DNA of 64,000 bases from an uncultured Gammaproteobacteria bacterium (GTDB lineage: Bacteria > Patescibacteriota > Microgenomatia > UBA1406 > GWC2-37-13): contig CAZGZD010000001.1 of the NCBI GenBank assembly GCA_964530005.1, forward strand, positions 33,541-97,540, given 5' to 3'. Both the position numbers and the translations under genes were made by a program. Under the pieces are notes generated by a model. It searched no databases. It worked only from the letters and a program-made list of their open reading frames with translations, and was not told the origin of the DNA. This document shows positions 3,142 through 44,960 of the stretch, piece after piece (positions within the stretch are counted from its first letter, which is position 1; each line of letters opens with the position of its first letter).

Positions 3142-3539
3142 ATGGGTTAATATTGTGGGGGTAAGGGGGCACTATGCGCGCCACCTATTTATGCCTTTTG
3201 CAGTATTAAGTCAGTCGCTGGTATTGACCCCTTGTATTTGCATACAGGGTGGGAGCTGAAGATCTTAGATATTTATTGTCTAAGGTACGAAGCACTGCGA
3301 TATCGGCCGCACCTTTACATTAAGGGTAGAGATAGTATAGGAGTTGGAGCTTAGCATTTGCTTGCTAAGTGTACGGCCAATATATGAGTCTCAAACAGAA
3401 AAATCAAACCTATTTAGATAAAGTTGTATGGTAGTGAGGGTTGATATTGGGGAGATACTCCTTTCGAAGTACGCGGATGTTTCCATTTTGCAGATAAAGC
3501 TAAAAGCATTGTCTGTAGAGTGGAAACATTCGACAACTA

Positions 3540-22401: not shown

Positions 22402-22417
22402 ATATGTGATGGTTACT

Positions 22418-23170: not shown

Positions 23171-23183
23171 TCTCTATTATTTA

Positions 23184-23822
23184 TCAATAAATTTCAACTT
23201 CAATACTTGCAGATTTAGGTCGGACTACTGATTTATTGATATCTATCAACTTGGTTGTCTCGAGCCCCTGCTTGGGTAAGATACGCACCTTATATTTACC
23301 TTTTTTACGGGCTGCAAATGTAATGGCAAAGAGCTGATCTCCACCAAATATAGATTGTGTCTTGCTACTAATTTCTTTATAGCCTGTCACCGTGGCATAT
23401 CCCTTTGCATCACGAGGCAGAATTCTAAAATCCGCAATTGACGATGTCGCACCCACATAGGATAGCCCAGTCCCATCATAGCCAAATAGCACATCATACG
23501 CCACGATATCAAACTCAGCCGAATTCACACTCACCAAAAAGCTCACCTGGCGACCTACTGGGACCCGACTTGCACCACTTCCAAATACGATAGTAAATGC
23601 GCCTTTGTCGATCTTTTTAATAGCTGCCGCGACTTTTTTAAGAGGTGGAGGGGTCGAGGCTGTATCAGTCGGTACTGGTTTGTATGCAGATTTCTCCGTG
23701 GCGAGCTTAGCGCGATATACATATACCCCAAATCCCAGTATCACGATAAGCACAGATATGAAGGCGTAGAGCCCTATACGGCTACCTGTCTGTCGCGATA
23801 TGTGTGTGTCTGAATTATTCAT
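23184..23822 (-). CDS. Membrane-anchored cohesin-like domain protein
   Basis: 212 aa with an N-terminal TM helix. The pattern VSFLVSVNSAEFDIVAYDVLFGYDGTGLSYVG...LFAITFAARKKGKYKVRI is cohesin-like. Confidence 0.5.
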   Translation of the reverse strand: MNNSDTHISRQTGSRIGLYAFISVLIVILGFGVYVYRAKLATEKSAYKPVPTDTASTPPPLKKVAAAIKKIDKGAFTIVFGSGASRVPVGRQVSFLVSVNSAEFDIVAYDVLFGYDGTGLSYVGATSSIADFRILPRDAKGYATVTGYKEISSKTQSIFGGDQLFAITFAARKKGKYKVRILPKQGLETTKLIDINKSVVRPKSASIEVEIY

Positions 23823-23838
23823 ATTGAAATTTGAATTA

Positions 23839-26077: not shown

Positions 26078-26106
26078 TTGACACATAGAAAGTAGTGGTA
26101 TATACT
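26078..26106 (+). promoter_or_regulatory. Promoter TTGACA, 17-nt spacer, TATACT, placed for a leaderless HTH gene
   Basis: -35 at 26078-26083 and -10 at 26101-26106. The ATG at 26114 lies 7 nt after the -10. Confidence 0.6.
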
Positions 26107-26113
26107 TCAGACC

Positions 26114-26332
26114 ATGTCGGACTCACTCAAAAGAAGCGCAAAAGTATCACTCTCCGATCTTCCAGATCTGATGACGATTCGAGAGGTAGCAGATCTCCTG
26201 CGTGTATCCCCACTTACCATAAAGCGCTGGGGCAAGCGCGGCAAGCTTCCGGCAATTCGTATCAACTCCCGTGGCGACCGTCGCTACAAAAAAGAGGTCG
26301 TCGAACGACTCCTAGGTGTAGAGCAAGAATAA
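26114..26332 (+). CDS. Excisionase/MerR-like helix-turn-helix DNA-binding protein
   Basis: 72 aa. MTIREVADLLRVSPLTIKRWGKRGKLPAIRI fits the HTH_17/excisionase-type motif. Confidence 0.8.
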   Translation: MSDSLKRSAKVSLSDLPDLMTIREVADLLRVSPLTIKRWGKRGKLPAIRINSRGDRRYKKEVVERLLGVEQE

Positions 26333-26373
26333 AGCCTCCATACTCAATTCTGCTTTAAATTAATCCTATAATA

Positions 26374-26382
26374 TGCTATAAT
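26374..26382 (+). promoter_or_regulatory. Extended -10 promoter TGcTATAAT
   Basis: TG at 26374-26375 and TATAAT at 26377-26382. The ATG at 26388 lies 5 nt after the -10, so the mRNA is probably leaderless. Confidence 0.5.
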
Positions 26383-26387
26383 TCCGC

Positions 26388-27872
26388 ATGGCAGAAAGAA
26401 TATTGCGAGAAGTGCGATTTGCAGCTGAGCCTCTCGCCTATCAACAACCTTCCCATGGATTCCAGGCTAGACTACTTCTGGGCAAACGCACGCTTGATCC
26501 ACAGCATCAGGTTGAGGGTGAGATGAAATCTGAGCATTTTGCGACCATTGCGCAGCATGATTACTCACCATTTGAGCGCACATCTCAGGCTGAGCGCAGC
26601 GAATACTGGAACAGTCAGCGCGTTGAGTCAAATGCGCAGGTTGATGCGTGGACTAGCCAACTTGTAAATATTTTTGCGCATCATCAGGATTTTTTCACGA
26701 CCACTGAGGAAGGCCAACGAAGGACACAGTTTCTTGCACAAATAGGAATTGACGCGGCAAACTTCGATTCAGATACTGCACAAAGTATCTACCAAACCTT
26801 TTTTGGAGAAGGCGTTGATGATTCTCTCAAACTATATACCAACATAGTGCTCAGTCTTCATATAGATGAAGGGTCTGGGATGATAGATCAAGCAAGACTC
26901 ACAGATAGCCTTCCAGAAATACTGTGGTTTGCTAGTATATTCGGTGAGAACTCATCCCATATAGTGACTCAGCTCATTGAAGCCGAAACAGCGCTTCAGA
27001 CTGATCGAGATATTTTTATAGAAAGAGGTAACGCTGAAATAAATAATCTCTCAGATTACGAAACGAGTCTGCTTAATTTTGTTATGCAACATGGGTATCG
27101 AGAAGAAGAAGCAAGTCAGGATGATAATCCAAATAGTGTCGCACGTGCAGAAGATTTAGAGCCACAGGAGGTTGCTGAAAGACTTATAGACTACACAACG
27201 GGCAGGCCAACCGGTGAGAAGGTAGATATGTCACAGTCTTTTCCCCAGTTTGTCGAGCTTATTGAAGAACTGGCAGAGCACGAACCTTTGGTCCAGGAAA
27301 AAGCACTCTTGCTTATTACTGACGATACAGCTGCAATGATAGACCGTATAGCACAAGAGGCCAATGATCGCGATCGAGAACTCGGATTTGTTATACGAGG
27401 AGTACATCTTATGCAGGACCCTGGTGATAAAAGATATCTCATCGGAGGATATGTTGCCCCTGCTATGGACTTTGCCACAGCCAAACGAGGTACTACTACC
27501 ACCGATCCTGAATTTGAGCTCGCAAACGCTACTGCTCTCACGCAGAATACGCAACTAACAGAATACCTTGAGGGCAAAGCTGGAATAGATGTGGGCAAAC
27601 TTGTCCTTGTCGGACACATACACCAGGAGGGACTGGGCAAGCACTGGCACACAGAACCGTCTCAGCAAGACTACGAGCAAGTAGAACAGACATTACGCGA
27701 GCGTGGTGGGTCATACCCCTGGGCTGTAGTGACCAAAGCGGATGGCCAGCTTGGAATGCGTGTTTTCTATAGCTATCTGAGAGATGGTGAAGTTCAACAT
27801 GACGAGATTCCATTCACCACCGAATCGGGTATATATCAGATGCTCCAACAAGGCCAGAGAGATGCTGCGTAA
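26388..27872 (+). CDS. Hypothetical protein with a C-terminal JAB/MPN (JAMM)-like metalloprotease domain
   Basis: 494 aa. The C-terminal region reads ELGFVIRG...LVLVGHIHQEGLGKHWHTEPSQQD, which fits E...HxH...SxxD. I do not recognise the N-terminal ~330 aa. Confidence 0.55.
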   Translation: MAERILREVRFAAEPLAYQQPSHGFQARLLLGKRTLDPQHQVEGEMKSEHFATIAQHDYSPFERTSQAERSEYWNSQRVESNAQVDAWTSQLVNIFAHHQDFFTTTEEGQRRTQFLAQIGIDAANFDSDTAQSIYQTFFGEGVDDSLKLYTNIVLSLHIDEGSGMIDQARLTDSLPEILWFASIFGENSSHIVTQLIEAETALQTDRDIFIERGNAEINNLSDYETSLLNFVMQHGYREEEASQDDNPNSVARAEDLEPQEVAERLIDYTTGRPTGEKVDMSQSFPQFVELIEELAEHEPLVQEKALLLITDDTAAMIDRIAQEANDRDRELGFVIRGVHLMQDPGDKRYLIGGYVAPAMDFATAKRGTTTTDPEFELANATALTQNTQLTEYLEGKAGIDVGKLVLVGHIHQEGLGKHWHTEPSQQDYEQVEQTLRERGGSYPWAVVTKADGQLGMRVFYSYLRDGEVQHDEIPFTTESGIYQMLQQGQRDAA

Positions 27873-27944
27873 AAATGACCTTCGTTGACATTACTTCTAC
27901 TCTCGTGCTATCTTTAGACTAAAGTATAGATTTTTATTGTTAAA

Positions 27945-29387
27945 ATGGCAGGACCCACAATACCAGATATCCCCACCTATCGCCCGCCAGAGGCTGCTCC
28001 ACCAACCGAAAATCCATTTCTTGAGGGTATAGCGCGAGTAGGATATAAGGCTAGTCGACATATTCAGGAAGGATTTGGTCAGACTTCAACAAACGATAGA
28101 AAGACAGATAGACAGATAGTGACTGAGGTTGATACAAAAGTCGAGGCAGAGTTGAAAGAAGAACTCGGTAGAATCAGCCCACAAGTGAAATTTTTCGGTG
28201 AAGAAGGAGGGGGTGCGGTGGAGCGAGCTGGAGATCAATGGGTAGTAGATCCGCTGGACGGCACAGAGAATATGCGTGGCTGGCCACACGAGGTCGCAGT
28301 CTCAATCGGACTGCTTCGCAATGGCGAACCTATAGCTGGAGTAATTGTCGATCCTTTGCACAAAAAGGCATATGTTGCCGAAAAAGGGAAAGGAGCATAT
28401 GAGATTACCCTGAACGACGATGGCACTGTAAAAGAAAGAAAAGCGATTAAAGTAAGCGACTGCCCCCAGATTGAAAATACGGCGATGGTCGGGGTGGATA
28501 TATCATCCAATGAAGTGAGTCGAACCAGAGCACTTAAACAACAAAAACTTATCCTAGATGCGAAGGCTCAAAGTGTGAAAATCACGGGCTCACCTGTCGC
28601 TGCACTTGCGGCTGTTGCGGAAGGCTCACTTGATGTCTATATTCGAGAGGCGACAAAAGCTCCAGATCTGATTGCCGGAGTCGCTATTGTTCGCGAAGCA
28701 GGTGGCAAAGTCCTCAACTATGAAGGACGGGAATGGACAGTAGATGATCTGGGAGTCGGGAAAGGAATTATAGCCGGTGGCGAAAAAATTGCCTCAGAGC
28801 TCGCCGTGCTTTTGCAAAAACCAGAAGTCGCTGTAAAAATGGACGAAAAACCAATCGCAGAACAAATCGCAGATGAACATGCTTTTGATCTTGACAAACT
28901 TATACCTGAACTTCAGGTCGCCAAAGCACAAGGCAAAACACTCGTAATTACCAATGGGCATTTCGTACTCCTACACCCAGGTCATGTCGAGAGCTTCCAA
29001 CTAGCACAAGAGGTTCCTGGCGGTAATCCAGAAGACGTTGCTCTTTTAGTTATTGTGAATAATGATAAACAAACAGCTGCAAAAGACCCAGAAAAAGCTA
29101 AATTGCAAGCTGCACAAGATAGAGCAGCTATGGTAGCCAATCAACGCCAAGTGAGCTTTGTGGCAATATCAGGATCCGAAGATGCTTCTGTTGTAGCCGA
29201 CATCCAAACTCTTATTGATAATGGATTGGTTGACGGAGATACAATGTATGTAAAGGGCGGAGACTATAATATGGGTGACAATATTCCTCCTGAGGCCGAA
29301 CTTATACAAAAAGCCGGGGGGAGATTTTTGCTTCAAAGCAGAAGTGGGAAGTGGTCAACAACAGAACTTATGCACAAGTTGGGATAG
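27945..29387 (+). CDS. Fusion of an inositol-monophosphatase-family phosphatase with an HldC/RfaE-domain-II-like (HIGH-motif) nucleotidyltransferase
   Basis: The N-terminal half has FFGEEGGG, WVVDPLDGTENM and DLIAGVAIVREAGG (IMPase motifs). The C-terminal half has LVITNGHFVLLHPGHV (HxGH) and ends VKGGDYNMGDNIPPEAELIQKAGGRFLLQSRSGKWSTTELMHKL, very like heptose-1-P adenylyltransferase. Confidence 0.75.
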   Translation: MAGPTIPDIPTYRPPEAAPPTENPFLEGIARVGYKASRHIQEGFGQTSTNDRKTDRQIVTEVDTKVEAELKEELGRISPQVKFFGEEGGGAVERAGDQWVVDPLDGTENMRGWPHEVAVSIGLLRNGEPIAGVIVDPLHKKAYVAEKGKGAYEITLNDDGTVKERKAIKVSDCPQIENTAMVGVDISSNEVSRTRALKQQKLILDAKAQSVKITGSPVAALAAVAEGSLDVYIREATKAPDLIAGVAIVREAGGKVLNYEGREWTVDDLGVGKGIIAGGEKIASELAVLLQKPEVAVKMDEKPIAEQIADEHAFDLDKLIPELQVAKAQGKTLVITNGHFVLLHPGHVESFQLAQEVPGGNPEDVALLVIVNNDKQTAAKDPEKAKLQAAQDRAAMVANQRQVSFVAISGSEDASVVADIQTLIDNGLVDGDTMYVKGGDYNMGDNIPPEAELIQKAGGRFLLQSRSGKWSTTELMHKLG

Positions 29388-29391
29388 TTCC

Positions 29392-31083
29392 TTAGGAAAA
29401 TTCTCGAGTAAAATATCTCACAATGCTATCCCGTCGAGAAATAAGGGTTTGTGCTACAAAATCACTCAGTGAATCAACCTCTCCATCTTGAAGTTTTTGC
29501 TGCAAAGCCTCAAACTGTCGCTGAGCACCGCTCGTCCACTCCACGTCCCGTGCATATTTTGCATTACCCTTAGCTGTAGGATCATCGGCTACTTTTGTTG
29601 CAAGTTTTTGTTGTTGAGCCTTAATCATCTCCAGGTATAGCTGAACCTGTGCGATTGATCCGTCCTTATCCTGTGGATATTCGGCAGCCGCGACAGCCTC
29701 TCTAATCTCGCCATCTCCCACCCGCCTCAAGCGCTCAACTTGCTGCGATATAAGACCCTTATCTTTTACCACTATTTGCCCAGAGTCGCGACCACCTTCA
29801 ACGGTCAATACTTGTGCGTATGCTTCATTTACCGGCACATCTCCATTGGGATCTGCATCTGGTATAGTGCGCACAATATCCCACAGATTCTGTGTTGTTA
29901 ATTCAGCAGGGAACTCTTTTACTCCCCCAGTTGCACGGGCATATAAAGCACCACCATGGTCGATAAAAGCAACCTTATCACCCTTCATCATTACATTGTG
30001 CGGGCGCCTATTGTACTGATTGTGCCAGATATCAACCAAAAGTCCTTCCTTAAGGATCGGGCTATCATGATACGCCTCAGATAATACAAAAGGATCAACC
30101 TCCTCAGTGTATGCTTCCAGAAAACCAACAACAAGGACTTTCTCTCCATCTACTTCCTGAATTGTCGTCTCTGGTACTGGTATGCCCATAGAGCGCATAA
30201 GTCTGTTCTCCACTACCTCAGCCTGAAGGGTATGGATCGGTGCTCGTTTGACTATAAATCGCCTACCTTCTGCAGTCTTCCATATCTCAACGCCGTGAGA
30301 TGCCTGCTGCATGTCCTTACCCTCAACTAATCGTCTGTCAAGTTTTGCGTGAGCAATATCAATAAAATCAGGATTAAGCTGTGCTCTGTCTTTTATGATT
30401 CCGCGACTTACAGCCTGCTGCAGTACCCATTCTCGAAGTTTTGTATTGTCGGCTAGAAGTTTATCGGCAAAAACACCAGAATTTGCTGCCCCTTGAGGAT
30501 CTACACTTTGAAGTAGAAGATTGAGCTTTTGTTGTAAAGCTTCGGTCGACAGTCCTGTATTTATGGTCTGAATTTTGACCTGGCCATTTATCACACGAAT
30601 TCTATTTTTGACAGGATTCTGATCGGCGCTCTTGGCTCCTTCTGTATGAGTCCATTCCAACTTTGGCGACTGCCCCCATTGATCAGCACGCACAGCATAT
30701 GCCAGGACGCTCAATTCTGGTGAGACAGTCAGATCTGTCGCAATACCAAGTTTTTTAAGCTCAATCAACACCTCTTCCAGCTGCGGCACTACCTGTCTGT
30801 CAACTTTTTGATAAAGCAATTTTGCCTCAAGTGTCTGGTGCATTTGATCAATCGCATCTTCATCTATAGCTCCTTCTTGTTGACCTCTTACTCTTTTACC
30901 TAAAAGGTCTTCAAAAGGCTTGATGTATCGAGTCTCTCCTTGACGGGCTATATGCATAGTAATTTTGTCTGCAGACGTAGGAAGGCGCATATTCTCCCCC
31001 TCAGGAGCTTGAGCAACTGCTTTGGGCGGAGGCCGATTATCTGGTCTTGGAGGCATTGAAATTTCTGTTCTAATATCTGTCAT
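29392..31083 (-). CDS. Atypical kinase-like protein (PI3/PI4-kinase-type or AFK-type catalytic loop)
   Basis: 563 aa. Candidate motifs are RFIVKRAP (beta3 Lys), LQAEVVENRL (alphaC Glu), LLVDIWHNQYNRRPHNVMM (catalytic D...N) and VAFIDHGGAL (DFG-equivalent). An alternative ATG at 31056 gives MPPRPDNRPPP. Confidence 0.5.
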   Translation of the reverse strand: MTDIRTEISMPPRPDNRPPPKAVAQAPEGENMRLPTSADKITMHIARQGETRYIKPFEDLLGKRVRGQQEGAIDEDAIDQMHQTLEAKLLYQKVDRQVVPQLEEVLIELKKLGIATDLTVSPELSVLAYAVRADQWGQSPKLEWTHTEGAKSADQNPVKNRIRVINGQVKIQTINTGLSTEALQQKLNLLLQSVDPQGAANSGVFADKLLADNTKLREWVLQQAVSRGIIKDRAQLNPDFIDIAHAKLDRRLVEGKDMQQASHGVEIWKTAEGRRFIVKRAPIHTLQAEVVENRLMRSMGIPVPETTIQEVDGEKVLVVGFLEAYTEEVDPFVLSEAYHDSPILKEGLLVDIWHNQYNRRPHNVMMKGDKVAFIDHGGALYARATGGVKEFPAELTTQNLWDIVRTIPDADPNGDVPVNEAYAQVLTVEGGRDSGQIVVKDKGLISQQVERLRRVGDGEIREAVAAAEYPQDKDGSIAQVQLYLEMIKAQQQKLATKVADDPTAKGNAKYARDVEWTSGAQRQFEALQQKLQDGEVDSLSDFVAQTLISRRDSIVRYFTREFS

Positions 31084-31103
31084 GTGAATTAGAGATGCTT
31101 AAT

Positions 31104-37100: not shown

Positions 37101-40100
37101 GGCATCAGCGGCTGCCGGTGTAGGAGTTGGTTCAGGCGCCGCGGGAGGCTCTACGGGAGTAGGAACCAGGGGCTCAGCTGGTGTTGGTTCTGCCGGTGGA
37201 GCTGGTGGCTCCGAAGGGGCTGGTGTGGGCGGTTCAGGGGTTGGCGGTACGGCTGGCTCCGGTGCAGGAGAAGATTCAGATGCTGCTGGTTCAGGTGGCG
37301 CAGCTGGCTCGGGGGCTGCAGTTTCAGTTGGTTCAGGAATTGGCGGAGGAGGTGTAGTCGGCGCAGGAGTTGGTGTGGGAGGGATTGGTGTGGGAGGGAT
37401 TGTTGAATTTCTAAACATAACACTTGCACGACCATCTTTGACGATAAACCCCTCGACAACCCACCCTCCGGATATTTTGCCATTAATATATGTAGCTAGT
37501 CCACTATGAACACTATCTAGTTGGGCACTGATCTGATCTTTGACTAAAGAATGCCTTCCTTTAAAAGTTAGCTCTTTTTTAGTCGGTACAAGCATATTAT
37601 GATCATCTGTCTTATACTGCACATCAACCAAAGTCGTCTTGCCGCCCCTTATCAATCCATGGCCTTCTATACTACCTTCGATAATCAATCTGTCTCCATC
37701 GATTCTAACCTTGCCGTCTTTCATCTCATCTAGACCTTTTTCTTTCAGTTTTTCATCTATGGGCTTTTTGGCAAATTCATTTAGATTTTCTTCAGTAAAT
37801 TCGATCCTAGCCTCAGCTCCTACAACATCGGCAAGCGTTTTTTCGATACTTACAAAAATGTCTCTCCCCGGCTCTGTCTCAAGTGGAATCGATGCTGGAG
37901 CTTCTGTTGGTGTGCCAGGAGTGGGTTCTGGAGGGGTTCTGGTTAGAGGGGTTGAGGGAGTTGTAGGTCGAACTGGGGCTGGGGGAATCTCACCTGTGTC
38001 GATTCGCCTCAAGATATCAAGAGCTGCTTGAGATACCACTTCTGACCGGATCTTATTTATCCATTTTTTAGCCTCATCTTTTTCATCATAATCAAATTTG
38101 CCCGTTGTGTCTTTGGGATCTGGCAATAATCCCTGATGGCGGCTGGCGCTGGATATCCAGACATTTGGAGTAAATTCTGGTATGTGCAAACTTATGACCT
38201 GTGGGCCACCCTCGACAACAGCCGCAATATGCGCAAATCCTGTGTCATTGCTAAGCACCAGATCTTGATGCTTAAGCAGCACACTGTTTTGCGCCATATC
38301 TCCTGTTATAAATCTAGCATTCTCAATACCCCCAAACACTCGCTCCAATTCCTCCTTCGAATAACTACCCTTGGTATTGATGAATATGTTTACTTCAGTA
38401 TCCGGCTGATCTGCCCGTATTTTCTCAATTACCTGCTTCCATTGATCTAGTGAATATCTTTTTGCAGTCAAGCTTGCCTCAATGACTATACCAACTTGTT
38501 TTTTGGACGAATCGATCTTATATTTATCGACAAGCTCTTGATACATCTCATCTGCATTAGCTGGAAGATCTATTCGTGGACGTGCGTGTACCAGACTCGG
38601 CGGAGATATGCTCAACAACTCTGCCAGGTATTGACTGAATCGATCATCCCCTGCTCTATCATAATCATACAGACCAACTGATGATGAGAATAAGTCTGAG
38701 GCTATAATAGTGTTATTGTCAGATCGTGCAACTCTGGGCTGCGCCGAATGATGGTCGAACTCAAAAACTACAGCATTTTGGATACCCTTGCTGCGAATGA
38801 GTTCCATCGACCTTTCCACTCCTTCGTATCGTTTCGTCGTTTCTAATTGAATATCTAAGTTCTGTACAAAAGGTTCAAGTAGCTTGTGGACATTGGATGG
38901 AGCAACTATGGTAACGTTTTTATCGGCGCCGCGGCTTCTTAAAAGTTTGGTAATACCATCTACATATGCTGTTGATAAGACTGTATCGCCTATTGCTCCT
39001 GATAATACGATATATACATCATCAGTCGCCATAAATGCGGAGTGCAGCTCTGCCAGAAGTCTTTCGCCGTCTGCAGATTCAAGAGCACCTCCGCCCTCCA
39101 CAAAATCAGCTATTCTTTTGGGTTTGCCTTCGGGACCGCGATATCTATCTACACTAAAGTCTCCATAGTTAAAGTATGTAATTTGCTCTTGTGCCTCCTG
39201 AAGTGGTTCAAGCGCAAACCGTGGGTAAAATGGCACAGGAATGATTGGGATATATGGTATGCCAGCCGGTGCTTCAGCCCCAGGTGGAATAAGCTCCATC
39301 GGAGGAGTCGGACGAAGGTTCAGGATAGTCTCATGACGAGGTTCGTGAAAGTGGATAGAGTTGTCCCCCCAATGGTAGTGAGGATCCTGGATCTGAAACG
39401 CAGACCCACCCAGCGATCTATGATCCCATTGAGTGATTACCCCGTCCTTAATCCGTATATCTCTAAGGATGACGCGGTCATGGTCTGAGGCATTGACCCA
39501 ATCCCATTTGTCACCATGTTGCACAAGTTCTGTCCCCTTGAGCATATGTACCTTGTGACCATCTATCAGTTGGGTCACCATGTGTCCTCGCTCTATACCA
39601 TTTCCAAAATACTCAGGTATAAGTTGGTCACCGTGGCGTATTGTCCAGCCTTCTCGCAACAGCTCGTCTCTCACTTCACGACCAAGTTGGGTATTTTCAT
39701 GAAATCCACGTCCAGCCAGCAAGTGTCCGTTGTGCATCAGCTTAAAATACGGCACCTCCTCATGTGCTGGCATACCGGGTAGCCCTGTGTTGGGACCGAG
39801 CTTCTCACCTGTTATACGATTATAGAATCCGATCTCGTTGGATGCCCAGTTATGCCTACCTTCGATATTTGAGGTGAGCCTCACAGTATTGTTTTCTCCT
39901 TTATGCCCCATAAAAAGCTCGTTTAGTCGCTGTTGTAGCAGTGTGTCTCTTGGGGGTCCCGCTTGATGTAAAGCCTCCACCACATGTTGTGCTGCCTGCT
40001 GCATACCGACTCCTACACCAAGTCCCGCTATTCCACCCACAGCACCGGCAAGGGCCACACTACCGCGGCGATAGCGACGAAACGCTCTATCTGCCTGAGT

Positions 40101-42308
40101 TCTCTCTTGCGTGTATTGCTCATTAAATTGATTTACCCTGTCGGTGAAAACCCTCGTCTGATCTGGTGTCAAGGAACCTCGCACTTGATCTACAAACTGT
40201 TCAAGCCGCAGTTGCTCTTGCTCAAGTACCGTAGATCCACCATATTGAATAAGCCCAATACCTTGTTCGTGTCCGAAATTGAGTCGGGATTCAATCTCAG
40301 CCGCCCGATCAAGTATCTGTTCTGCCGTAAGACCATCGAGTGTCAAAAGATCCTCTACTGAGCGCAGAGGAATCTGAAATCTCTCCATACGCTCTCGACG
40401 ATGAGAATTGGGTGCTACTTCGCCTCCCATCTGTCGCTGTGCTCCGTGCATCCATCTATCTCCTGATACTTCGCGGCCGCGACGAACAGCCGCAATAAGT
40501 GCACCAGATATTGTCCCCACGCCTGGAGCTGCCATACTTGCTGCACGAAGTGCCGTGCCGGGTAGCCGAAGTACACCCGCTGTCACAATTGCAAGCCCTG
40601 CGCCAACAAGCGCGGGATTGGCGGCATTCTGCCCACCTCGTGTGCGACGAATACGAATCACTTGTCGATCTACCCAACTCAATCTGGCTTGAGAATCATA
40701 TGCCCAATCGGCATTGGCAAGATTTATCGTGATCTGGTCTCGCCTATGATCAAGATAATCAAGGGCTGCTTGATGCTCTGATGCTGTAGCACGTATCTGT
40801 TGTCCCATCTCATATATATCAGTTGCAAAAAGGCTCGCCATACTTGCAAACTCATTGGCATCTCTACCAAAAAGAGCAGCAATATCTGCATTATCCTGAT
40901 TGTTGGCAACAAAATCGCGAATACGTTCCTGTACTTGGGCTGGCTCGGTGATCGTCCCATCTACAATAGGTCGTAGAATTTGCTCAATGAGCGCATCTTT
41001 TAGCGGGCCTTGGGCTTGTCTGAGGTCTTCACCTGTTCGAAGCCTTCCTCCTGTAAGATGCCCTATCTTAGCTGCGCTGGCTGCCTCAAAGTCTCCTCGC
41101 TGCGCGTCGACCTCTGCAACCTCTAAATTACTTCTTACTCCCCGATTGACCATCTGCATGGTGAGATACGAGGTATTGTTCTCAATCATAGCTCCACGTA
41201 CCTGAAAGTAAAATTTATTTTCATAGTAATCTTCGCCCAGGCGGAATTTGATACGACGGAAAAATCGTCGAGTGCGACCACGACTGCCTAGTATAGGGGT
41301 GGTGAGTTCATCCTGTACGGCTTCCTTTGCCATGAGACGAGATCTTTTTTCAACATCGATCTCGCGACTTGCAAGCGTACCCTCAACTCGAAGGTCTTCA
41401 ATAGAAGGAGGCACTGGTTCCAGATCAATGGGCTCAATGGGTGGCGATCCAGGCTCATGCGGGGGAGGAATCCCAGGACTTGGGGTTGGAGTAGGAGCTG
41501 GAGGAGCTGGTGGAATTTCCGGGGGCTCAATTGGCATTGGAACTCCCGGACTCCCGGGTGGAAGTGGTGCAACAGGCGGGGCTCCGGGCACATCAGGCGG
41601 CGGCGGTCCAGCTGGTGGTGGAACTGGAACCCCAGGCCCACCAGGAACTACTGGTCGGACAGGAGGTGCGGGCGGTGGTGGAACATCGGGTGGGGGCGGG
41701 GGCGCTATTTTTTTCTCTGGAGGAAGAAAAAGCTCTTTTCTTTTATTTATCATACCAGCCGCGATAACCTGGAGTTCATCATCTGTAAGTGGATGGCCAT
41801 ATTCTTCTTCAAGTCGGGCCATAACCGCATCATTTGCACGGATATCAGCCATCTCAACATAGATACGGGAAGTGTACTTATTGGGATCTTTTAGACGTCT
41901 GCGCTCATACTCTTTTCTATTTTGAATAAGTACATCTTTATAGTGCTCATACTTATCAAGCTCTAAAGCGTCCAATTCTTCAGAATTAATCCTCTCGTCA
42001 AGATACGTCACAATATCATCAACAGGCGCTCTCTCATCTATGCTGTAGACCAAATCACTGTCTTCTCGATGATCGACAAATCGGCGTCTTGTACGTCCTC
42101 TATTCTTGTCGATGGTTTTCTCTTTGAGTCTTTTGAGTGTCTCCTGACCATGAAGTTCACGAGCACTTAATGTGGCAGGATCTGCTGCCAAAAATATTTG
42201 AGCTCCCTCGTTAAATGCGCGAAGGACTTCTGCCCGCTCATAAGCAGGTGCGGCTTCTGGCCGGCGTAATGGTGGAGTTCCTTCAACTGGTGAGGGCCCG
42301 TCTGGCAT
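31104..42308 (-). CDS. Giant multidomain protein (3734 aa). It has a Pro-rich N-terminus, a polyproline tract, possible membrane hairpins, a GT9 heptosyltransferase-like domain, three PP2C-type modules (the middle one degenerate) and a duplicated C-terminal domain.
   Basis: A single uninterrupted 11.2-kb ORF with recognisable domain motifs along its whole length (see the sub-features below). Opposite-strand ORFs are low-complexity shadows. Confidence 0.9.
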   Translation of the reverse strand: MPDGPSPVEGTPPLRRPEAAPAYERAEVLRAFNEGAQIFLAADPATLSARELHGQETLKRLKEKTIDKNRGRTRRRFVDHREDSDLVYSIDERAPVDDIVTYLDERINSEELDALELDKYEHYKDVLIQNRKEYERRRLKDPNKYTSRIYVEMADIRANDAVMARLEEEYGHPLTDDELQVIAAGMINKRKELFLPPEKKIAPPPPPDVPPPPAPPVRPVVPGGPGVPVPPPAGPPPPDVPGAPPVAPLPPGSPGVPMPIEPPEIPPAPPAPTPTPSPGIPPPHEPGSPPIEPIDLEPVPPSIEDLRVEGTLASREIDVEKRSRLMAKEAVQDELTTPILGSRGRTRRFFRRIKFRLGEDYYENKFYFQVRGAMIENNTSYLTMQMVNRGVRSNLEVAEVDAQRGDFEAASAAKIGHLTGGRLRTGEDLRQAQGPLKDALIEQILRPIVDGTITEPAQVQERIRDFVANNQDNADIAALFGRDANEFASMASLFATDIYEMGQQIRATASEHQAALDYLDHRRDQITINLANADWAYDSQARLSWVDRQVIRIRRTRGGQNAANPALVGAGLAIVTAGVLRLPGTALRAASMAAPGVGTISGALIAAVRRGREVSGDRWMHGAQRQMGGEVAPNSHRRERMERFQIPLRSVEDLLTLDGLTAEQILDRAAEIESRLNFGHEQGIGLIQYGGSTVLEQEQLRLEQFVDQVRGSLTPDQTRVFTDRVNQFNEQYTQERTQADRAFRRYRRGSVALAGAVGGIAGLGVGVGMQQAAQHVVEALHQAGPPRDTLLQQRLNELFMGHKGENNTVRLTSNIEGRHNWASNEIGFYNRITGEKLGPNTGLPGMPAHEEVPYFKLMHNGHLLAGRGFHENTQLGREVRDELLREGWTIRHGDQLIPEYFGNGIERGHMVTQLIDGHKVHMLKGTELVQHGDKWDWVNASDHDRVILRDIRIKDGVITQWDHRSLGGSAFQIQDPHYHWGDNSIHFHEPRHETILNLRPTPPMELIPPGAEAPAGIPYIPIIPVPFYPRFALEPLQEAQEQITYFNYGDFSVDRYRGPEGKPKRIADFVEGGGALESADGERLLAELHSAFMATDDVYIVLSGAIGDTVLSTAYVDGITKLLRSRGADKNVTIVAPSNVHKLLEPFVQNLDIQLETTKRYEGVERSMELIRSKGIQNAVVFEFDHHSAQPRVARSDNNTIIASDLFSSSVGLYDYDRAGDDRFSQYLAELLSISPPSLVHARPRIDLPANADEMYQELVDKYKIDSSKKQVGIVIEASLTAKRYSLDQWKQVIEKIRADQPDTEVNIFINTKGSYSKEELERVFGGIENARFITGDMAQNSVLLKHQDLVLSNDTGFAHIAAVVEGGPQVISLHIPEFTPNVWISSASRHQGLLPDPKDTTGKFDYDEKDEAKKWINKIRSEVVSQAALDILRRIDTGEIPPAPVRPTTPSTPLTRTPPEPTPGTPTEAPASIPLETEPGRDIFVSIEKTLADVVGAEARIEFTEENLNEFAKKPIDEKLKEKGLDEMKDGKVRIDGDRLIIEGSIEGHGLIRGGKTTLVDVQYKTDDHNMLVPTKKELTFKGRHSLVKDQISAQLDSVHSGLATYINGKISGGWVVEGFIVKDGRASVMFRNSTIPPTPIPPTPTPAPTTPPPPIPEPTETAAPEPAAPPEPAASESSPAPEPAVPPTPEPPTPAPSEPPAPPAEPTPAEPLVPTPVEPPAAPEPTPTPAAADADVTVAPPPPPEPTETVVPEPTAPTEPSTPPSEPSVIDTGDASVTDITPTTRRERIRVRREEKARRKPGAREEAPSSSTEAPATVETTEGAKDARDRVESGEMGPYLWAAGTDKGRVRKNNQDQFTQTRLNDLGESLFILADGMGGHRGGAEASGIATKKVREEYTALRISGMAEEEALRVAIERANEAVYQEGQSNPDLRGMGTTVVAAVLKDDGSYLLANVGDSRGYTIGEMTAVSQITKDHSVAQELADMGRITQEEAYTHERSSTLTRAIGHKPTVDVDIFPGKLNDEAHLLLTSDGLWASTRHDPTTEIWRFAVMSDTPKDMVRSAIMAANEAGGADNTTIVIVKKLSSTPTITTPPSQTSHEATATTGETPRDTVPATPLSEPVEQTETAIPESTVPPVVPVTPSTTAGDADAIVVPPPPAVAAPIVETPVTIRTGATPSTDEAGSVAPAESTVSGADGATVVELEPEAQPSPEASKAIVHVLPRGELAAPTLTPDAKEVLVEIERSRVGSYGETSPGHETVTLNDGFPELKGQPEDARALRVTSEKSHEGHASVYKIESAKNHPDRQEVVVAQDSVRGFTAMFDSGERNPDLPRQQEIATKAADVTTRILTQLPANPSEAQIERAYLQIQAEIGRELALIPNIIGADQEPRMSIGGTVVQLYTRVVNGEEVPSAVIMHLGTGAAYARTGQGELRQITQDDDQLRLDLMQGKITRKQYEYYRKQLDTNTRQGQLRSYLPSRTENARDYFTQRRLLGMFFGAELSPSIHNVDLTPQDSEILIMSRGIKLNLTQDTVKRLSGAGVGEGYGDDPAYLADMIIREAREVAGKNALRSAPDDDLAVATMRIASDGTQPESSHTGSEQSPELAKERVLPVDRVLTQDWDSDLLTQIWQKSIHKPEGDSVARFKDTVHLTDAELAQLDRFVAQARNLHMVFAANEPLWSVFQSVVEEAEGINMTNVNSSEVYIYPNSDPKSNEIRKITAGSSKAAVMVPERVYELYRWEQIIAEVAGTVADYRGELEVPKNPKEFADEINAVNQFIKDSQESLESFRGQGVNLEADVVLDPDLEEAVIVRTENPRESSAATVDQTSEAASRRSTEFNVEDLGGDDLIEGDTGTTGTPADTSSAEADADINRFHTEPGVTPASVTETPATIRTDREPAGDGATFFDQDTAEVSDRRTSDKELKKILRKLEKKGKKSRLRTGVSMAKGVAGKVTRSVRNLGRVGDDVIHRPTEAASTVDEFILTDRIKAFKLNDRPNAEEIDWGWQGPYIVVSGTEQGEQQANQDRVKVLRLDTYGQTVLIAADGVGRHSGGERASQITVDTISEHYSAAKDAGLSSEEALREAVRTTQKHIELANRDEGIDGASTLVVVVLNDDGSYIGANLGDSRAYKVSAGSAEQLTTDAHEVDVDGVALLSKCLGFKSPDTNPEFFNGKLDDIEQIVLTTDGLWDGIEKPYHEVIQELVTRDIAPRDVVSRLIGYSVLSKEGIANMSAVAAKYIAPRTEDTIAVEATAPVATHMPASPDEEMPVSPLVAEPVVPAESTISIPESPLTVEDRTATVNELVTDPDHKYSHGILGRFAGGPMGHGVVFTDGQAAGIIESALTGEQVWSIAFVDEEKNGPEFNARIIGLSTKKGESVFVVTFNDRQGDSRGHSHTDYAIVLPAEDSSRLNPILAKDPSILLDVFKAKYPEYDRSERRRDGHVNRPLQIDPEYPNIQTISESVLERSYGLREHFKSLNLPKADKKEIVTPQPASAEGAPTAAEATVDLGEEVEIKIPGKNVHGKLPAGTYVGETSGGKVPKEVTARSEGHFSDHGPDWLNYVRDGRVDTVNEVLNDVYKARKRLSELVDQQYVRIMPSTVEGNKILRMEFFQDDKAPDSRAEGTFTPAYVEYEMSEVELNKLLGAVRENPDALEELYQAAFPTLDYKPGERMGMRRTPARGFYIIPEGTEAPRYTWKDLDDRDAKIREFFAGLEHYDYQHGPYGTGERFEPQI
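32590..33285 (-). other. PP2C-type module 3
   Basis: QQANQDRV, LIAADGVGRHSGGERAS, GASTLVVVVL, NLGDSRAY and IVLTTDGLWD. The final DN motif reads GIANMSAV (Asp to Ala). Confidence 0.7.
34545..35385 (-). other. PP2C-like module 2 with degenerate catalytic motifs (probable pseudophosphatase)
   Basis: It is colinear with PP2C but reads AMFDSGERN, GGTVVQLY, HLGTGAAYA (in place of GDSR), ILIMSRGI (in place of SDG) and DDDLAVATMRI. Confidence 0.5.
36050..36797 (-). other. PP2C-type Ser/Thr phosphatase module 1 (motifs intact)
   Basis: RKNNQDQF, ILADGMGGHRGGAEAS, GMGTTVVAAVL, NVGDSRGY, ITKDHS, LLLTSDGLW and GGADNTTIVIV. Confidence 0.85.
36985..37410 (-). repeat. P/T/E/A-rich linker containing a ~45-nt imperfect direct repeat
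   Basis: The DNA gtttcagttggttcagg...ggcggaggagg occurs at about 37041-37088 and again at 37306-37352. These encode APPPPPEPTETVVPEP and TPPPPIPEPTETAAPEP. Confidence 0.7.
38125..39025 (-). other. Glycosyltransferase family 9 (ADP-heptose-type heptosyltransferase-like) domain of the giant protein
   Basis: VYIVLSGAIGDTVLSTAYVDGITKLL...VGIVIEASLTAKRYSLDQWKQVIEKI...LVLSNDTGFAHIAAVVEGGPQVISL. The N-terminal xGD motif, the central K/R-x-W motif and the DTGxxH motif fit GT9. Confidence 0.7.
41410..41725 (-). other. Polyproline (FH1-like) tract of the giant protein
   Basis: IAPPPPPDVPPPPAPPVRPVVPGGPGVPVPPPAGPPPPDVPGAPPVAPLPPGSPGVP...PPIEP. Coordinates were located through the reverse complement around 41701-41740. 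Confidence 0.8.
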
Positions 42309-42323
42309 TTTAAATAATTTTTT

Positions 42324-42755
42324 TTAATTTACAATCTTCTGATTCTTCGCAATATATTTATCCACAGTCATTCCGGTATTACTTGGCTTATTTCTTTCTA
42401 ATACTACACCGCGAAGATATGTATCGCGAAAATCTCCGAAAAGATCTGTAAAGACTTGCTGAGCGTCAGGCAATTTATCCTGAAGAAACTTCTCAACTTC
42501 AGCCTGCGGCTTACCATCTTCATTCATCTTTACGAACTCTTCGACATATTCATCTGGTAATCTATCTACAATAACGGAAATGATATAGCTATCAAGGCGC
42601 ACAAATAGCTCCTTTATCATCTCCTCATGACTCGCCTCATCAAGAGTCACCGCACCGGCGTCGACGAGGATGCTCTCAAGATACGCACGAACATCTGGGG
42701 TAATCTCCAGAGGTTTTTTCTCTGCAGCTTGGGCTGCTTGTTGTACATCTGCCAT
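42324..42755 (-). CDS. DUF5663-like small helical protein
   Basis: 143 aa. The pattern EEMIKELFVRLDSYIISVIVDRLPDEYVEEFVKMNEDGKPQAEVEKFLQDKLPDAQQVF resembles the Patescibacteria DUF5663 family. This is recalled, not searched. Confidence 0.5.
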   Translation of the reverse strand: MADVQQAAQAAEKKPLEITPDVRAYLESILVDAGAVTLDEASHEEMIKELFVRLDSYIISVIVDRLPDEYVEEFVKMNEDGKPQAEVEKFLQDKLPDAQQVFTDLFGDFRDTYLRGVVLERNKPSNTGMTVDKYIAKNQKIVN

Positions 42756-42783
42756 AGACTTTTAAATAATTAATAATAAATAA

Positions 42784-44460
42784 TTACTGTCCTGTGCCTT
42801 GCTGACCTTTATTCCTTTTCCCTGCTGAGCGTGCCAGCATAATAAGACCAACAGATCCCATACTAAAAATGATAAGTAGCATCTTTCCTATTTTTTTGCC
42901 CTTCTCAAAATATGCAGCTCGCTTAAGTTGGCGTTTGATTAATTTGACTAAGTCAGGATGCATCAGCTCCTTCTCATCCACTTGCTTGAAAAAAGATTTT
43001 CGAGCTTTCTTATCATTTGCAAGCTCTGTAAACGAGTCTATTAGGTTGCCAAGCGAATTTTTTCCACCGCTGACTCCAAAAATTGCAGCAAGTGCATCTA
43101 GGTCATTATCCGTAATATGTGGCATTCCCTCAATATTTTGAGGTTCTGCCTTGTCATCCATCTTTACCTTACCAGTCTTTCTTTGCTCGACAAGATTTTC
43201 CTCTTCACTAGATAGATCTTCAAGCTTTTTCTGTTTATTCTTAAACTGGTCTATCTCTTGCTGGATTCTCTTATTCTCTGCTATATTGGCAGCAGAATCT
43301 GCAGGAAGCAATTCTGGTTCGCTATGCGGCGCTTGCTTACCAATTTGGGTAATATTCCACCTTATATATCCAATCTCAAGCTCCAAAGCACTAGCAATAA
43401 GACGCGGGTTATTCTCAGCAATCCCTCTTTTCTTCATTTCCCTCGCTTGCTCTTTGATAAAGGTTGCAGGTTTTCTCTCCGCTGCAACTTTGGCAATAAT
43501 CATAAGCTCATCTCGAGCAAAGTCCGGCTTATATCCCTCCTCAAGTATTTTTTTCTTAAACTCTATCCCTAACCTTTTCAAATCATCTTCTTCTTGCCGC
43601 TCACGATCCGCCACTTCTTTGGACTTGTAAGACAGTGGAGTTGCGCGGCTTATTGCATGATTCAAGTCGTCAAGATCTTGCTGCTCTACGTCACTAAGCT
43701 TCTCACCCGCATCCCACTTATTCATAAGAGTATTCCATAGCGCACGATCTTCATCGGATAGGCCTGATACGATCAGCTTTGCGAAGCCTTCGGCGTCATT
43801 GATATCAGTCGGCTGAGTCTCCTGCTTATATTCTCCCTCAACTACTTCAAATAATTTTGGATCCTCACGATCTATAAATTCTTCGCGCGGATTGACATTT
43901 TCGATACCGCTTTTGTGTAATTTGGCCAAATGCTCTCGATATACTTGAGTACCCATGTATTTCCCGAGAGCTTGATCTTTGCGTCTGCTTCTCAACTCTG
44001 CGGCATATTCGCGCTCTTCTTGATCTGATTTGAACTGCCCCGTCTGTTTTCGCCTCAACTGGCTTCTAAGATCCTCGCGTATCTGTTGACTATATGCATT
44101 CTTAAACTCGCTTGAGAACTCAATATTTACAATCACATCACCTGTGTTGACTACATCTGGGATTGCGTGTGGAGGTGGTGCTGGGGAGTCGGGAGAGTCA
44201 TACCAAAGCCCTCCATCCACAGGCACAATATTTGGAGCATCACCATGGTCTGTGGCATCTTTGGTTTTAGTTCTCCTGAGTACTTCGTCAAGCTCCGGGA
44301 ATTTTTCCCTACTTGGATCGATTCCTAATTCATGCACAGGCTGCTCCACGATACCAACAGTTATCTGATCATCCACTGCGAGTTGACTTGGTTCCTGAGG
44401 AGTAATATCCGCTGGCTTTGGGCGTGGTCTGTCGACTTCTAAGGTATCCATATTTTTCAT
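42784..44460 (-). CDS. Pro-rich-N-terminus, coiled-coil, C-terminally tail-anchored membrane protein (paralog of 12150..13253)
   Basis: I prefer the ATG at 44460 (MKNMDTLEVDRPRPKPADITPQEP) to the TTG at 44466. The C-terminus is MLLIIFSMGSVGLIMLARSAGKRNKGQQGTGQ. Confidence 0.7.
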   Translation of the reverse strand: MKNMDTLEVDRPRPKPADITPQEPSQLAVDDQITVGIVEQPVHELGIDPSREKFPELDEVLRRTKTKDATDHGDAPNIVPVDGGLWYDSPDSPAPPPHAIPDVVNTGDVIVNIEFSSEFKNAYSQQIREDLRSQLRRKQTGQFKSDQEEREYAAELRSRRKDQALGKYMGTQVYREHLAKLHKSGIENVNPREEFIDREDPKLFEVVEGEYKQETQPTDINDAEGFAKLIVSGLSDEDRALWNTLMNKWDAGEKLSDVEQQDLDDLNHAISRATPLSYKSKEVADRERQEEDDLKRLGIEFKKKILEEGYKPDFARDELMIIAKVAAERKPATFIKEQAREMKKRGIAENNPRLIASALELEIGYIRWNITQIGKQAPHSEPELLPADSAANIAENKRIQQEIDQFKNKQKKLEDLSSEEENLVEQRKTGKVKMDDKAEPQNIEGMPHITDNDLDALAAIFGVSGGKNSLGNLIDSFTELANDKKARKSFFKQVDEKELMHPDLVKLIKRQLKRAAYFEKGKKIGKMLLIIFSMGSVGLIMLARSAGKRNKGQQGTGQ

Positions 44461-44462
44461 AC

Positions 44463-44906
44463 TCAATTTTTTCTTGATTTGGCTTTTAGAATATGTTTGA
44501 TTACTTCCTCTGCCTTACCATACTCTCCTTTTTTAACTAGTTGAGAGGCATGTGCCACAGTCGGTTCGCCAAACACTTTTTCATATATCTCCCGCACTTT
44601 TTCGACTGCTGGAGCAATTTCGGCAAAATCATCTTTGAGTTTTTGTGCTTTGAGATACAGCTCATCCACACTTGCGCCTAATTTTATGTCCTCAAGAGTC
44701 TGTGTGGCAATATCGCCTGCTTTCTCCGGATCAAGAGAATTATCTTCCAAAAGCCTGTCAATCTGCTGAAGAATCTCAGTCTCAATAAGCATTCGAAACA
44801 TGTCCTCGATTGAGTGAGATTGTGTGGAGCTTTTCGAAGGGTCAGAAAGTGGCATTTTTATAGAATCCAGTTTTGTATAGGTGGGAAGCGTAGTGTGTGT
44901 TTGCAT
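44463..44906 (-). CDS. Small helical hypothetical protein (module partner; counterpart of 11820..12146)
   Basis: 147 aa. Its stop lies 2 nt before the next ATG, and it is the first gene of the long minus-strand operon. Confidence 0.6.
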   Translation of the reverse strand: MQTHTTLPTYTKLDSIKMPLSDPSKSSTQSHSIEDMFRMLIETEILQQIDRLLEDNSLDPEKAGDIATQTLEDIKLGASVDELYLKAQKLKDDFAEIAPAVEKVREIYEKVFGEPTVAHASQLVKKGEYGKAEEVIKHILKAKSRKN

Positions 44907-44916
44907 CTATATATAC

Positions 44917-44946
44917 AATATAGCTATCTTTTTACGATAAAATCAA
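44917..44946 (-). promoter_or_regulatory. Candidate promoter of the giant-gene operon: TTGATT, 18-nt spacer, TATATT
   Basis: On the minus strand the -35 is at 44946-44941 and the -10 at 44922-44917. The ATG at 44906 lies 10 nt downstream. Confidence 0.4.
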
Positions 44947-44960
44947 GTGCAATTTGCACT
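44946..44960. promoter_or_regulatory. 15-bp palindrome agtgca-att-tgcact abutting the -35 (candidate operator)
   Basis: Two 6-bp perfect inverted arms, located in the divergent intergenic region between 44906 and 45048. Confidence 0.3.

Follow-up and report, generated by a model that had tools for sequence, protein, structure and literature searches.

Organization of the convergent locus

The window analysed here, a stretch of 64,000 nucleotides (nt) of contig CAZGZD010000001.1 from a Patescibacterium, contains a locus in which two gene units, one on the plus and one on the minus strand, converge (coordinates are positions in this window unless a related locus is named). The plus-strand unit encodes a helix-turn-helix (HTH) protein, a JAB-like protein and a fusion of an IMPase-family phosphatase with an HldC-like nucleotidyltransferase. 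The minus-strand unit encodes a small protein, a charged, tail-anchored coiled-coil protein, a DUF5663-like protein, a giant protein with GT9 and PP2C domains, and a kinase-like protein (Table 1). This map of eight genes, first drawn from the letters of the DNA, was reproduced in full by analysis of the open reading frames (ORFs), including the spacing between the five minus-strand genes (2, 28, 15 and 20 nt) and the junction at which the stop codons of the two units face each other with 4 nt between them (29387 and 29392).

The kinase-like protein of 563 amino acids (aa) was found in identical form on 8 contigs and the 480-aa fusion protein on 17, from many independent sequencing runs, and the 3734-aa ORF of the giant was called in two independent assemblies. 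This independent recovery of the same proteins and the same giant ORF rules out an artefact of assembly.

Table 1. Coordinates of the genes, domains and sequence elements discussed in the text (window positions; the last rows refer to related loci)
Feature	Position (nt)	Strand	Remarks
Promoter-like TTGACA-17-TATACT	26078-26106	+	sigma-70-like; ends 7 nt before ATG 26114
HTH gene	26114-26332	+	72 aa
Promoter-like TTTAAA-17-TATAAT	26354-26382	+	ends 5 nt before ATG 26388
JAB-like gene	26388-27872	+	494 aa
IMPase-HldC-like fusion gene	27945-29387	+	480 aa
R(R/P)PEAAP, first copy	27981-28001		aa 13-19 of 480-aa protein
IMPase-family phosphatase domain	28035-28778	+	aa 31-278; PF00459
HldC/RfaE-domain-II-like nucleotidyltransferase domain	28917-29381	+	aa 325-479; TIGR02199
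Kinase-like gene	29392-31083	-	563 aa
Kinase-like core	29449-30336	-	aa ~250-545; AlphaFold2 model and Foldseek
Giant GT9/PP2C gene	31104-42308	-	3734 aa
Lineage-specific C-terminal extension	31104-37988	-	aa 1441-3734; no counterpart in relatives
PP2C domain 2	32589-33248	-	aa 3021-3240; last metal-binding Asp replaced by Ala
PP2C domain 1	36054-36770	-	aa 1847-2085; every catalytic motif present
GT9 domain	37989-39131	-	aa ~1060-1440; PF01075
Conserved core of giant	37989-42308	-	aa 1-1440; homologs in relatives
R(R/P)PEAAP, second copy	42246-42266		aa 15-21 of giant
DUF5663-like gene	42324-42755	-	143 aa
Charged, tail-anchored, coiled-coil gene	42784-44466	-	560 aa; first ATG 44460
Small-protein gene	44463-44906	-	147 aa
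Promoter-like TTGATT-18-TATATT	44946-44917	-	ends 10 nt before ATG 44906
Perfect 15-nt palindrome AGTGCAATTTGCACT	44946-44960		just upstream of the -35 end, 1-nt overlap at 44946
Type IV secretion system-like stretch, L001	12810-20805
Type IV secretion system-like stretch, L002	11835-21498
Type IV secretion system-like stretches, L003	1075-3905; 12834-19525

A core conserved among related loci

Gene neighbourhoods were reconstructed for ten loci (the window, L001, L002, L003/L009, L010, L011, L012, L013, L024 and L025), which were gathered via the kinase-like protein and all belong to rare Patescibacteria. These loci have in common a core of four parts, namely a DUF5663 protein, a large protein terminated by a GT9 domain, a kinase-like protein with Asn at the position of the catalytic Asp (Asn-type) and an HldC-like domain. 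The HldC-like domain was adjacent or fused to the Asn-type kinase-like gene in all ten loci, the GT9 protein was found in each of the eight loci with enough upstream DNA, and the DUF5663 gene directly preceded the GT9 gene wherever its position was visible (5/5). Gene orientation varied from convergent to co-directional with overlapping stop and start codons (L010) to fused, with adjacency remaining constant, and the proteins common to the loci were just ~25-56 % identical.

The original prediction that all eight genes are co-conserved held for this core but not for the rest: the coiled-coil protein had no homolog in the related loci, the small protein recurred once, as a 35 % identical ortholog at the same first position of the Roizmanbacteria locus L010, and the unit of HTH gene, JAB gene and IMPase-HldC fusion recurred in one relative (L011). 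Such absences are what would be expected if the genes were merely neighbours without a common function. For the core cassette this view is effectively refuted, as the core genes stayed adjacent in about ten loci at the above level of divergence, despite changes in orientation, and entered four independent fusion architectures.

These fusions join the kinase-like protein to the HldC-like domain. In P0007 (1029 aa), the kinase-like part is followed by both IMPase and HldC domains; this protein is encoded directly after the GT9 protein in L012 and is 41 % identical to the 480-aa window protein over 460 aa. Kinase-like and HldC domains are likewise joined in P0008 and in P0013 (a fragment with the same arrangement), and in P0017, where the HldC domain lies further on and which is encoded beside the GT9 protein of L025. 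Together with the core synteny across relatives, they support a real functional locus. The fusions are the strongest evidence on function, and they show the evolutionary partner of the kinase-like protein to be the sugar-nucleotide enzyme and not PP2C.

In the window, the IMPase-family domain of the 480-aa fusion protein matched PF00459 with an E-value of 4.6e-46 (157.9 bits against a cut-off of 27) and carries the DPLDGT metal-binding motif at aa 102-107, while no IMPase equivalog subfamily (HisN, CysQ or SuhB) was reached at its cut-off. Its nucleotidyltransferase domain matched TIGR02199 at 4.6e-18 and HldE at 1.4e-13, versus 4.6e-4 for a generic cytidylyltransferase model, and the protein matched the HldC structure 5x9q in PDB at 3e-5. 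Starting from the HldC-like proteins of L001 and L002, a profile matched the same Burkholderia HldC structure at 1.4e-15 versus 0.015 for TagD. The motifs TNGHFxLxHPGH (HxGH) and (W/Y/F)STT were intact in all nine aligned homologs, and read LHPGH and WSTT in the window protein. Judged by these profiles, the nucleotidyltransferase is closest to HldC. The profile searches thereby supported the predicted IMPase/HldC-like fusion, though with TIGR02199 and HldE both under their equivalog cut-offs.

Given scores so far under the equivalog cut-offs, the kinase-like and HldC-like pair might instead activate a phospho-alcohol other than heptose (as CDP- or ADP-glycerol, -inositol, -ethanolamine or -choline), with the GT-B domain acting as a phospho- or glycosyltransferase for an envelope polymer. 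The Kennedy pathway and teichoic-acid synthesis follow just such a logic, combining a kinase-fold choline or ethanolamine kinase with a HIGH-motif cytidylyltransferase. Moreover, TagD, ECT and CCT belong to the same nucleotidyltransferase superfamily and gave weak PDB matches, an IMPase domain would suit inositol-phosphate chemistry, and Patescibacteria are, to our knowledge, devoid of lipopolysaccharide (LPS). We nevertheless consider this alternative improbable, as the match to HldC was better by 10-13 orders of magnitude than those to TagD, ECT and the generic model, and the transferase matched GT9 specifically, signature motifs included.

In three of the related loci (L001 8406-9917, L002 8382-9659 and L024 1910-3448, all on the minus strand), an N-terminal region of ~260-340 aa without known family takes the place of the IMPase in the HldC-like protein. 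This region contains CD(F/V)DGV(V/I)TDN, which resembles HAD motif I, and a glutaredoxin gene adjoins. An assignment as HAD phosphatase was rejected, the DxDGxxTD-like motif having no Pfam or PDB support, and the motif is noted as a lead only.

The conserved core of the giant protein consists of an N-terminal domain, a helical region, a variable middle and the GT9 domain. The latter matched PF01075 at aa 1264-1366 (8.9e-9; 35.5 bits against a cut-off of 22), above the Pfam gathering score, which confirmed the predicted GT9 assignment, and the large proteins of the relatives matched PF01075 as well. GT9 enzymes are recognised by an N-terminal GD and a C-terminal D(S/T)G..H..AA, as known for WaaC. 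Among nine diverged GT9 homologs, the motifs IGD, K-x-Y and NDT..H were invariant; in these we see the likely equivalents of the catalytic and donor-binding signatures known from WaaC-type enzymes. From this invariance, the GT9 domain appears to be under selection as an enzyme. The predicted link between HldC-like and GT9 proteins, that is, the glycosylation half of the original prediction, was upheld by their co-conservation in every relative with enough flanking DNA.

The GT9 proteins of the relatives (1444-1870 aa) aligned to aa 28-195, 297-747 and 1045-1433 of the giant and ended after the GT9 domain. The remainder of the giant is an extension with no counterpart in any related locus examined, in which Pro/Thr/Ala/Glu-rich linkers alternate with two PP2C domains and several domains without assignment. 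The two PP2C domains were supported by PP2C_2 (1.1e-30), PP2C (1.4e-15) and an Stp1-type PP2C model (2e-87 over both stretches). Three PP2C modules had been claimed, but the third, at aa ~2300-2600, was rejected (Pfam E-value 0.19, hhalign probability 1.4 % and no PDB match). Across the other folded-looking parts of the giant, ~1500 aa found no relatives in Pfam and PDB sequence searches, and PDB searches with aa 300-1640, 2230-2830 and 3290-3734 yielded no usable match. An internal duplication of the C-terminal ~450 aa was not significant. Directly after the GT9 domain, aa 1440-1640 (nt 37389-37991) showed a sub-threshold resemblance to an LmeA-like phospholipid-binding domain (E-value 0.0015; 19 bits against 27). 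The helical region contains weakly hydrophobic Gly/Ala-rich stretches at aa 562-608 and 749-770; membrane anchoring is not asserted, these stretches being weak (1.5-1.85) and inconsistent among the relatives.

For the 143-aa protein encoded before the giant, the match to PF18908 (DUF5663) was borderline (1.6e-4; 22.6 bits against a gathering cut-off of 23.7). Its ortholog in L003, 56 % identical over 102 aligned residues, has a PF18908 match on record (E-value of at most 1e-5), in line with the borderline DUF5663-like call of the window protein. Orthologs of 38-56 % identity were present in L001, L003, L010 and L013, where the large GT9 gene follows directly in every case.

The kinase-like protein had no match in Pfam, NCBIfam or PDB sequence searches, the HipA_C, HipA_2 and APH profiles matching it below threshold. 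Its predicted kinase character was borne out at the level of the fold: in Foldseek searches with an AlphaFold2 (AF2) model (predicted local distance difference test score, pLDDT, 72) all matches were kinase folds, among them the LanM kinase domain, GRKs, PknB, VPS34 and CtkA, at E-values of ~1e-3 and probabilities of 0.8-1.0 among the best matches (0.35-1.0 over the list). The protein additionally carries its own N-terminal domain of ~250 aa. Within the kinase-like core, K279, E289, N363 and D375 are kept, and Asn358 takes the place of the catalytic Asp.

An alignment of 80 family members showed conservation of the ATP-binding Lys (71 of the 72 members that have a residue in this column), the ATP-site Glu/Asp, the Mg-binding Asn (78/80) and the DFG-type Asp (80/80). 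The catalytic Asp was present in 66 members, in a loop reading Y-D-R-x-P-W-N. Asn occupied this position in exactly 14, which constitute the HldC/GT9-linked subfamily and have the loop Y-N-R-R-P-H-N. Because the Asp-type relatives occur in unrelated contexts (an mreB-mreCD operon and giant-ORF arrays), it is the Asn variant whose link to HldC and GT9 is specific. Among these Asp-type relatives, the gene for P0018 (1069 aa; L027 4297-7506) has mreB on one side and mreC/mreD/PBP2 on the other, and that for P0028 (3325 aa), a protein that includes an adenylate-kinase domain, lies in a giant-ORF array in L028.

The kinase-like protein is rare: 5.8 billion clustered proteins included just four relatives of full length, and it was present in 2 of 185,579 species-representative genomes (the metagenome-assembled genomes of a member of the Patescibacteria and of a Candidatus Roizmanbacteria) and on one contig among JGI metagenomes. 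An exhaustive profile search with the core alone (profile ~250-545) retrieved 98 representatives, many of them 1000-6600 aa long. At the weak end of this family, the top viral matches were phage MuF/portal proteins fused to ADP-ribosyltransferases (ART). The kinase clade of polyvalent proteins is characterised by a Glu that precedes strand 2 and a Gln in the N-lobe's final strand (Iyer et al. 2017, PMC5512222), and E266 and Q309 of the 563-aa protein fit these hallmarks. By such sequence features, the protein appears to be a neofunctionalised offshoot of the polyvalent-protein kinase clade.

The original prediction had combined glycosylation with phospho-signalling, in that the kinase-like protein would phosphorylate targets to be dephosphorylated by the PP2C domains of the giant. 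In keeping with this, the first of the two PP2C domains has its full set of catalytic motifs and the similarity to Stp1 is strong, a kinase-fold gene lies 20 nt downstream of the giant in the same operon, and protein kinases are the closest kin of the wider kinase family (PMC5512222). However, PP2C is missing from the GT9 protein of every relative, where the kinase-like protein is conserved without such a partner, and its fusions are to HldC and IMPase, none being to signalling domains. PADLOC identified no known kinase/phosphatase system, returning just a generic HTH match (mad1) and a generic PP2C match; a defence-system reading was rejected on the same result. Because the PP2C extension is unique, Asn358 replaces the catalytic Asp and the fusion partners are HldC and IMPase, the proposed interlock of kinase and PP2C fails, and we regard phospho-signalling as very unlikely.

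Accessory genes, promoter-like sites and chromosomal setting

Profile matches bore out the HTH assignment of the first plus-strand gene, whose 72-aa product is of the MerR/excisionase/BldC type (Pfam MerR_1 6e-11 and HTH_17 1.1e-10; NCBIfam BldC 2.6e-12, under its cut-off). Its ortholog in L011 is 85 % identical and has the same neighbours.

The 494-aa product of the second gene had no sequence match in Pfam, NCBIfam or PDB. It consists of an N-terminal domain without known family (aa 1-250) and a JAB/MPN-like metalloprotease domain (aa ~300-494), in which the JAB-type residues E331, H411-x-H413 and S425-x-x-D428 occupy the secondary-structure elements expected of them; the spacer from HxH to S is 11 residues long, versus 7 in canonical JAMM. 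An AF2 model of this C-terminal half was built from two sequences and had a low pLDDT of 50. When it was searched against PDB with Foldseek, the best 50 of 57 matches (E-value of at most 1e-3; top match 3e-6) were all MPN/JAMM proteins, including BRCC36, Rpn11, CSN5 and the bacterial BubCD. The JAB-like call thus finds support at the level of the fold, and the motif is kept in P0104, the sole close homolog, so that "JAB-like" seems a reasonable label for the modelled domain. In L011 (3287-5230, minus strand), a homolog retains the N-terminal 250 aa, and its JAB motif gives way to an HExxH (HEYTH) region; from the two sequences, it looks like one metalloprotease-type module was exchanged for another.

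On the other strand, the 560-aa coiled-coil protein is charged and probably helical, and the tail anchor proposed for it was seen as a hydrophobic stretch at aa 525-549. Proline-rich N-termini, claimed for most of the proteins, were present in four of the eight. Among window ORFs of at least 60 aa, the peptide R(R/P)PEAAP occurs just twice, each time near the N-terminus of a cassette protein (the 480-aa fusion and the giant). RRPEAP is also N-terminal in the GT9 protein of L001, and RPEK or RPxK precedes the HldC-like domain in other loci. The peptide may be a common docking or targeting motif.

Promoter-like sites were found where the original prediction had placed them, and the one before the HTH gene matched 11 of 12 consensus positions, the best of the region. 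The leaderless start proposed from their position would be plausible, but the total of such sites in the region (32) did not exceed that in shuffled controls (28.2 +/- 5). The palindrome that adjoins the minus-strand site has its closest near-copy at 9093-9107. An operator function was rejected for it, as its number of near-copies was matched by 4 of 100 shuffles and was not above chance. Taken singly, neither this promoter-like site nor the palindrome exceeds chance.

The locus is flanked by ordinary chromosomal genes, such as belong to a bacterium with a small genome, encoding Pth, transaldolase, glutamate dehydrogenase, GH18 and cohesin/dockerin proteins. The transaldolase gene, which belongs to sedoheptulose-7-P metabolism, lies at 48042-48956, 3 kb from the locus. 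A run of proteins with cohesin, dockerin and fn3 domains is encoded directly upstream of the plus-strand unit (21799-25857, minus strand), which suggests that this Patescibacterium has a scaffold system at its cell surface. A 731-aa TrwB/VirD4-like coupling protein of a type IV secretion system (T4SS) is encoded at 8623-10818, some 15 kb away from the locus, preceded by a 1082-aa ORF without assignment (5385-10818 for the two). In L001-L003, the cassette abuts dnaN/dnaA and T4SS-like genes (PrgI, TraC-like, a VirB4-type ATPase and T4SS pilins), an arrangement that does not occur in the window, L010 or L013. An origin of the locus from a mobile element was rejected, since tblastn against phage and plasmid collections gave no matches and the flanks are chromosomal.

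This setting also bears on the possibility that the giant is a polyvalent multi-effector, exported or injected into the bacterium that hosts the epibiont, in which case host targets would be modified by its GT9 and PP2C domains, with the proteins encoded nearby as accessory or loading factors. The giant strings enzymatic domains on long Pro-rich linkers, the family of the kinase-like domain resides mostly in multidomain proteins of 1000-6600 aa, and the MuF/portal-ART fusions at its weak end match the polyvalent kinase clade (PMC5512222). The T4SS-like genes next to three of the cassettes, the VirD4-like protein and the adjoining cohesin/dockerin proteins point in the same direction. Against this stand the lack of a recognisable secretion signal, the loci in which T4SS adjacency is missing, the encoding of the kinase-like domain as a separate protein outside the giant, and the absence of matches in the phage and plasmid collections. 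Furthermore, a dedicated donor-synthesis enzyme points to the cytoplasm of the producer itself. We therefore think it unlikely that the giant acts as an effector.

A candidate sugar-activation cassette and its relation to known systems

In the ADP-heptose pathway, a kinase, a phosphatase and HldC yield ADP-heptose, which is used by GT9 enzymes. We infer that the cassette may be a self-contained system that activates a sugar and transfers it via GT9; this is the likeliest of the explanations considered, and we see about as much chance of its being right as of its being wrong. The kinase-like protein, the IMPase (in some lineages) and the HldC-like domain would act jointly on a sugar phosphate to give a nucleotide-activated, ADP-heptose-like sugar. 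The logic would be that of HldE (kinase plus adenylyltransferase) and GmhB (phosphatase), executed with unrelated kinase and phosphatase folds. With ADP-heptose, or a sugar like it, as the putative donor, the GT9 domain of the large protein would then pass the sugar to an acceptor. Because these bacteria lack LPS, a protein or an envelope polymer could serve as such. The PP2C extension, the coiled-coil protein and the HTH/JAB pair would be lineage-specific additions outside this core mechanism.

Domain identities, the conserved catalytic motifs of HldC, IMPase and GT9, synteny and gene fusions are shown by the data; the route itself, the nature of the sugar, the acceptor and any catalytic role of the kinase-like protein are deduced. 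Several points weigh against such a pathway. The family occurs in very few genomes, so that the co-occurrence counts are small, and these are partly phylogenetically dependent. The TIGR02199 score of 65.4 bits compares with an equivalog cut-off of 181.5, and the substrate could be another phospho-alcohol or sugar. The IMPase domain is present in just 3 of ~10 loci, the others having a standalone HldC-like protein or a different N-terminal domain, and a GmhA/SIS isomerase was not found among the ORFs of at least 150 aa scanned in the 64 kb. Finally, Asn358 should, judging from other kinases, cripple ordinary phosphotransfer. Because the catalytic Asp is replaced, the kinase-like protein may serve as a partner that binds nucleotides or acts as a scaffold, or may catalyse a different chemistry.

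A bolder form of the sugar-activation hypothesis, which we offer tentatively and hold to be doubtful, is that the Asn-variant kinase-like protein is a new enzyme that arose from the polyvalent-protein kinase clade. With the IMPase and the HldC-like domain it would make nucleotide-heptose by a third, non-orthologous pathway (after HldE/HldA and HddA), operating in a bacterium without LPS. The giant would in that case be a GT9 scaffold, possibly membrane-associated, that glycosylates proteins or the envelope at the interface of epibiont and host, and its PP2C extension a lineage-specific effector add-on.

Patescibacteria make up a large part of bacterial diversity and have a minimal metabolism, and the chemistry of their surface and host interactions is little known. 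If true, a dedicated cassette in which non-canonical parts make a nucleotide sugar and transfer it would provide a concrete handle on their glycobiology and a clean case of non-orthologous displacement in the heptose pathway. An uncharacterised kinase branch without catalytic Asp, from a family that otherwise occurs in giant polyvalent proteins, would moreover gain a defined genomic partner (HldC and GT9), which could reveal new pseudokinase chemistry.

Full-text literature searches returned no paper mentioning DUF5663 and none linking the Candidate Phyla Radiation to such a cassette, the canonical ADP-heptose pathway being noted, in one paper, for Paceibacteria only (PMC9166423). The statement that no described system has this composition therefore stands, in that the parts are known families and their combination is absent from the searchable literature.

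Among described systems, Stk1/Stp1 and PknB/PstP resemble the window locus in that Stp1-like PP2C domains are encoded beside a kinase-fold gene. Unlike the kinases of these pairs, however, the kinase-like protein falls outside the Hanks kinases, lacks the catalytic Asp and is conserved without PP2C in every relative. With the polyvalent-protein (PMC5512222) and HipA-like kinases it has in common the fold, a weak sequence likeness and a family frequent in giant multidomain proteins. It differs from the polyvalent kinases in its Asn-type YNRRPHN loop, its own N-terminal domain of ~250 aa, and a chromosomal gene tied to HldC and GT9 instead of ART and MuF.

A close parallel is the path from HldE and GmhB to WaaC/WaaF, since kinase, phosphatase and HldC-type activities are all implied in the cassette, some genomes encode kinase and nucleotidyltransferase as one protein in the manner of HldE, and a GT9 enzyme is genetically linked as the consumer. 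In contrast to HldE, the kinase module has a protein-kinase-like and not a PfkB fold, without the catalytic Asp, which places it outside HldE proper. The phosphatase is of the IMPase family and not, as GmhB, of the HAD family. The GT9 domain here ends a protein of 1400-3700 aa, and the organism is without LPS. The cassette also departs from ADP-heptose loci in that no GmhA was seen nearby and the similarity to HldC lies far below the equivalog level.

With respect to the acceptor, the bacterial autotransporter heptosyltransferases TibC and Aah, which are related to GT9, take ADP-heptose as the donor for the glycosylation of proteins and not of LPS (eLife 2014, PMC4358343). The cassette differs from them in taxon and domain architecture and has no autotransporter at the locus, and aa 300-1640 of the giant gave no PDB match to TibC or to solved GT9 structures at an E-value of up to 10. 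TibC and Aah nevertheless set a precedent for a protein as the acceptor of the transferred sugar.

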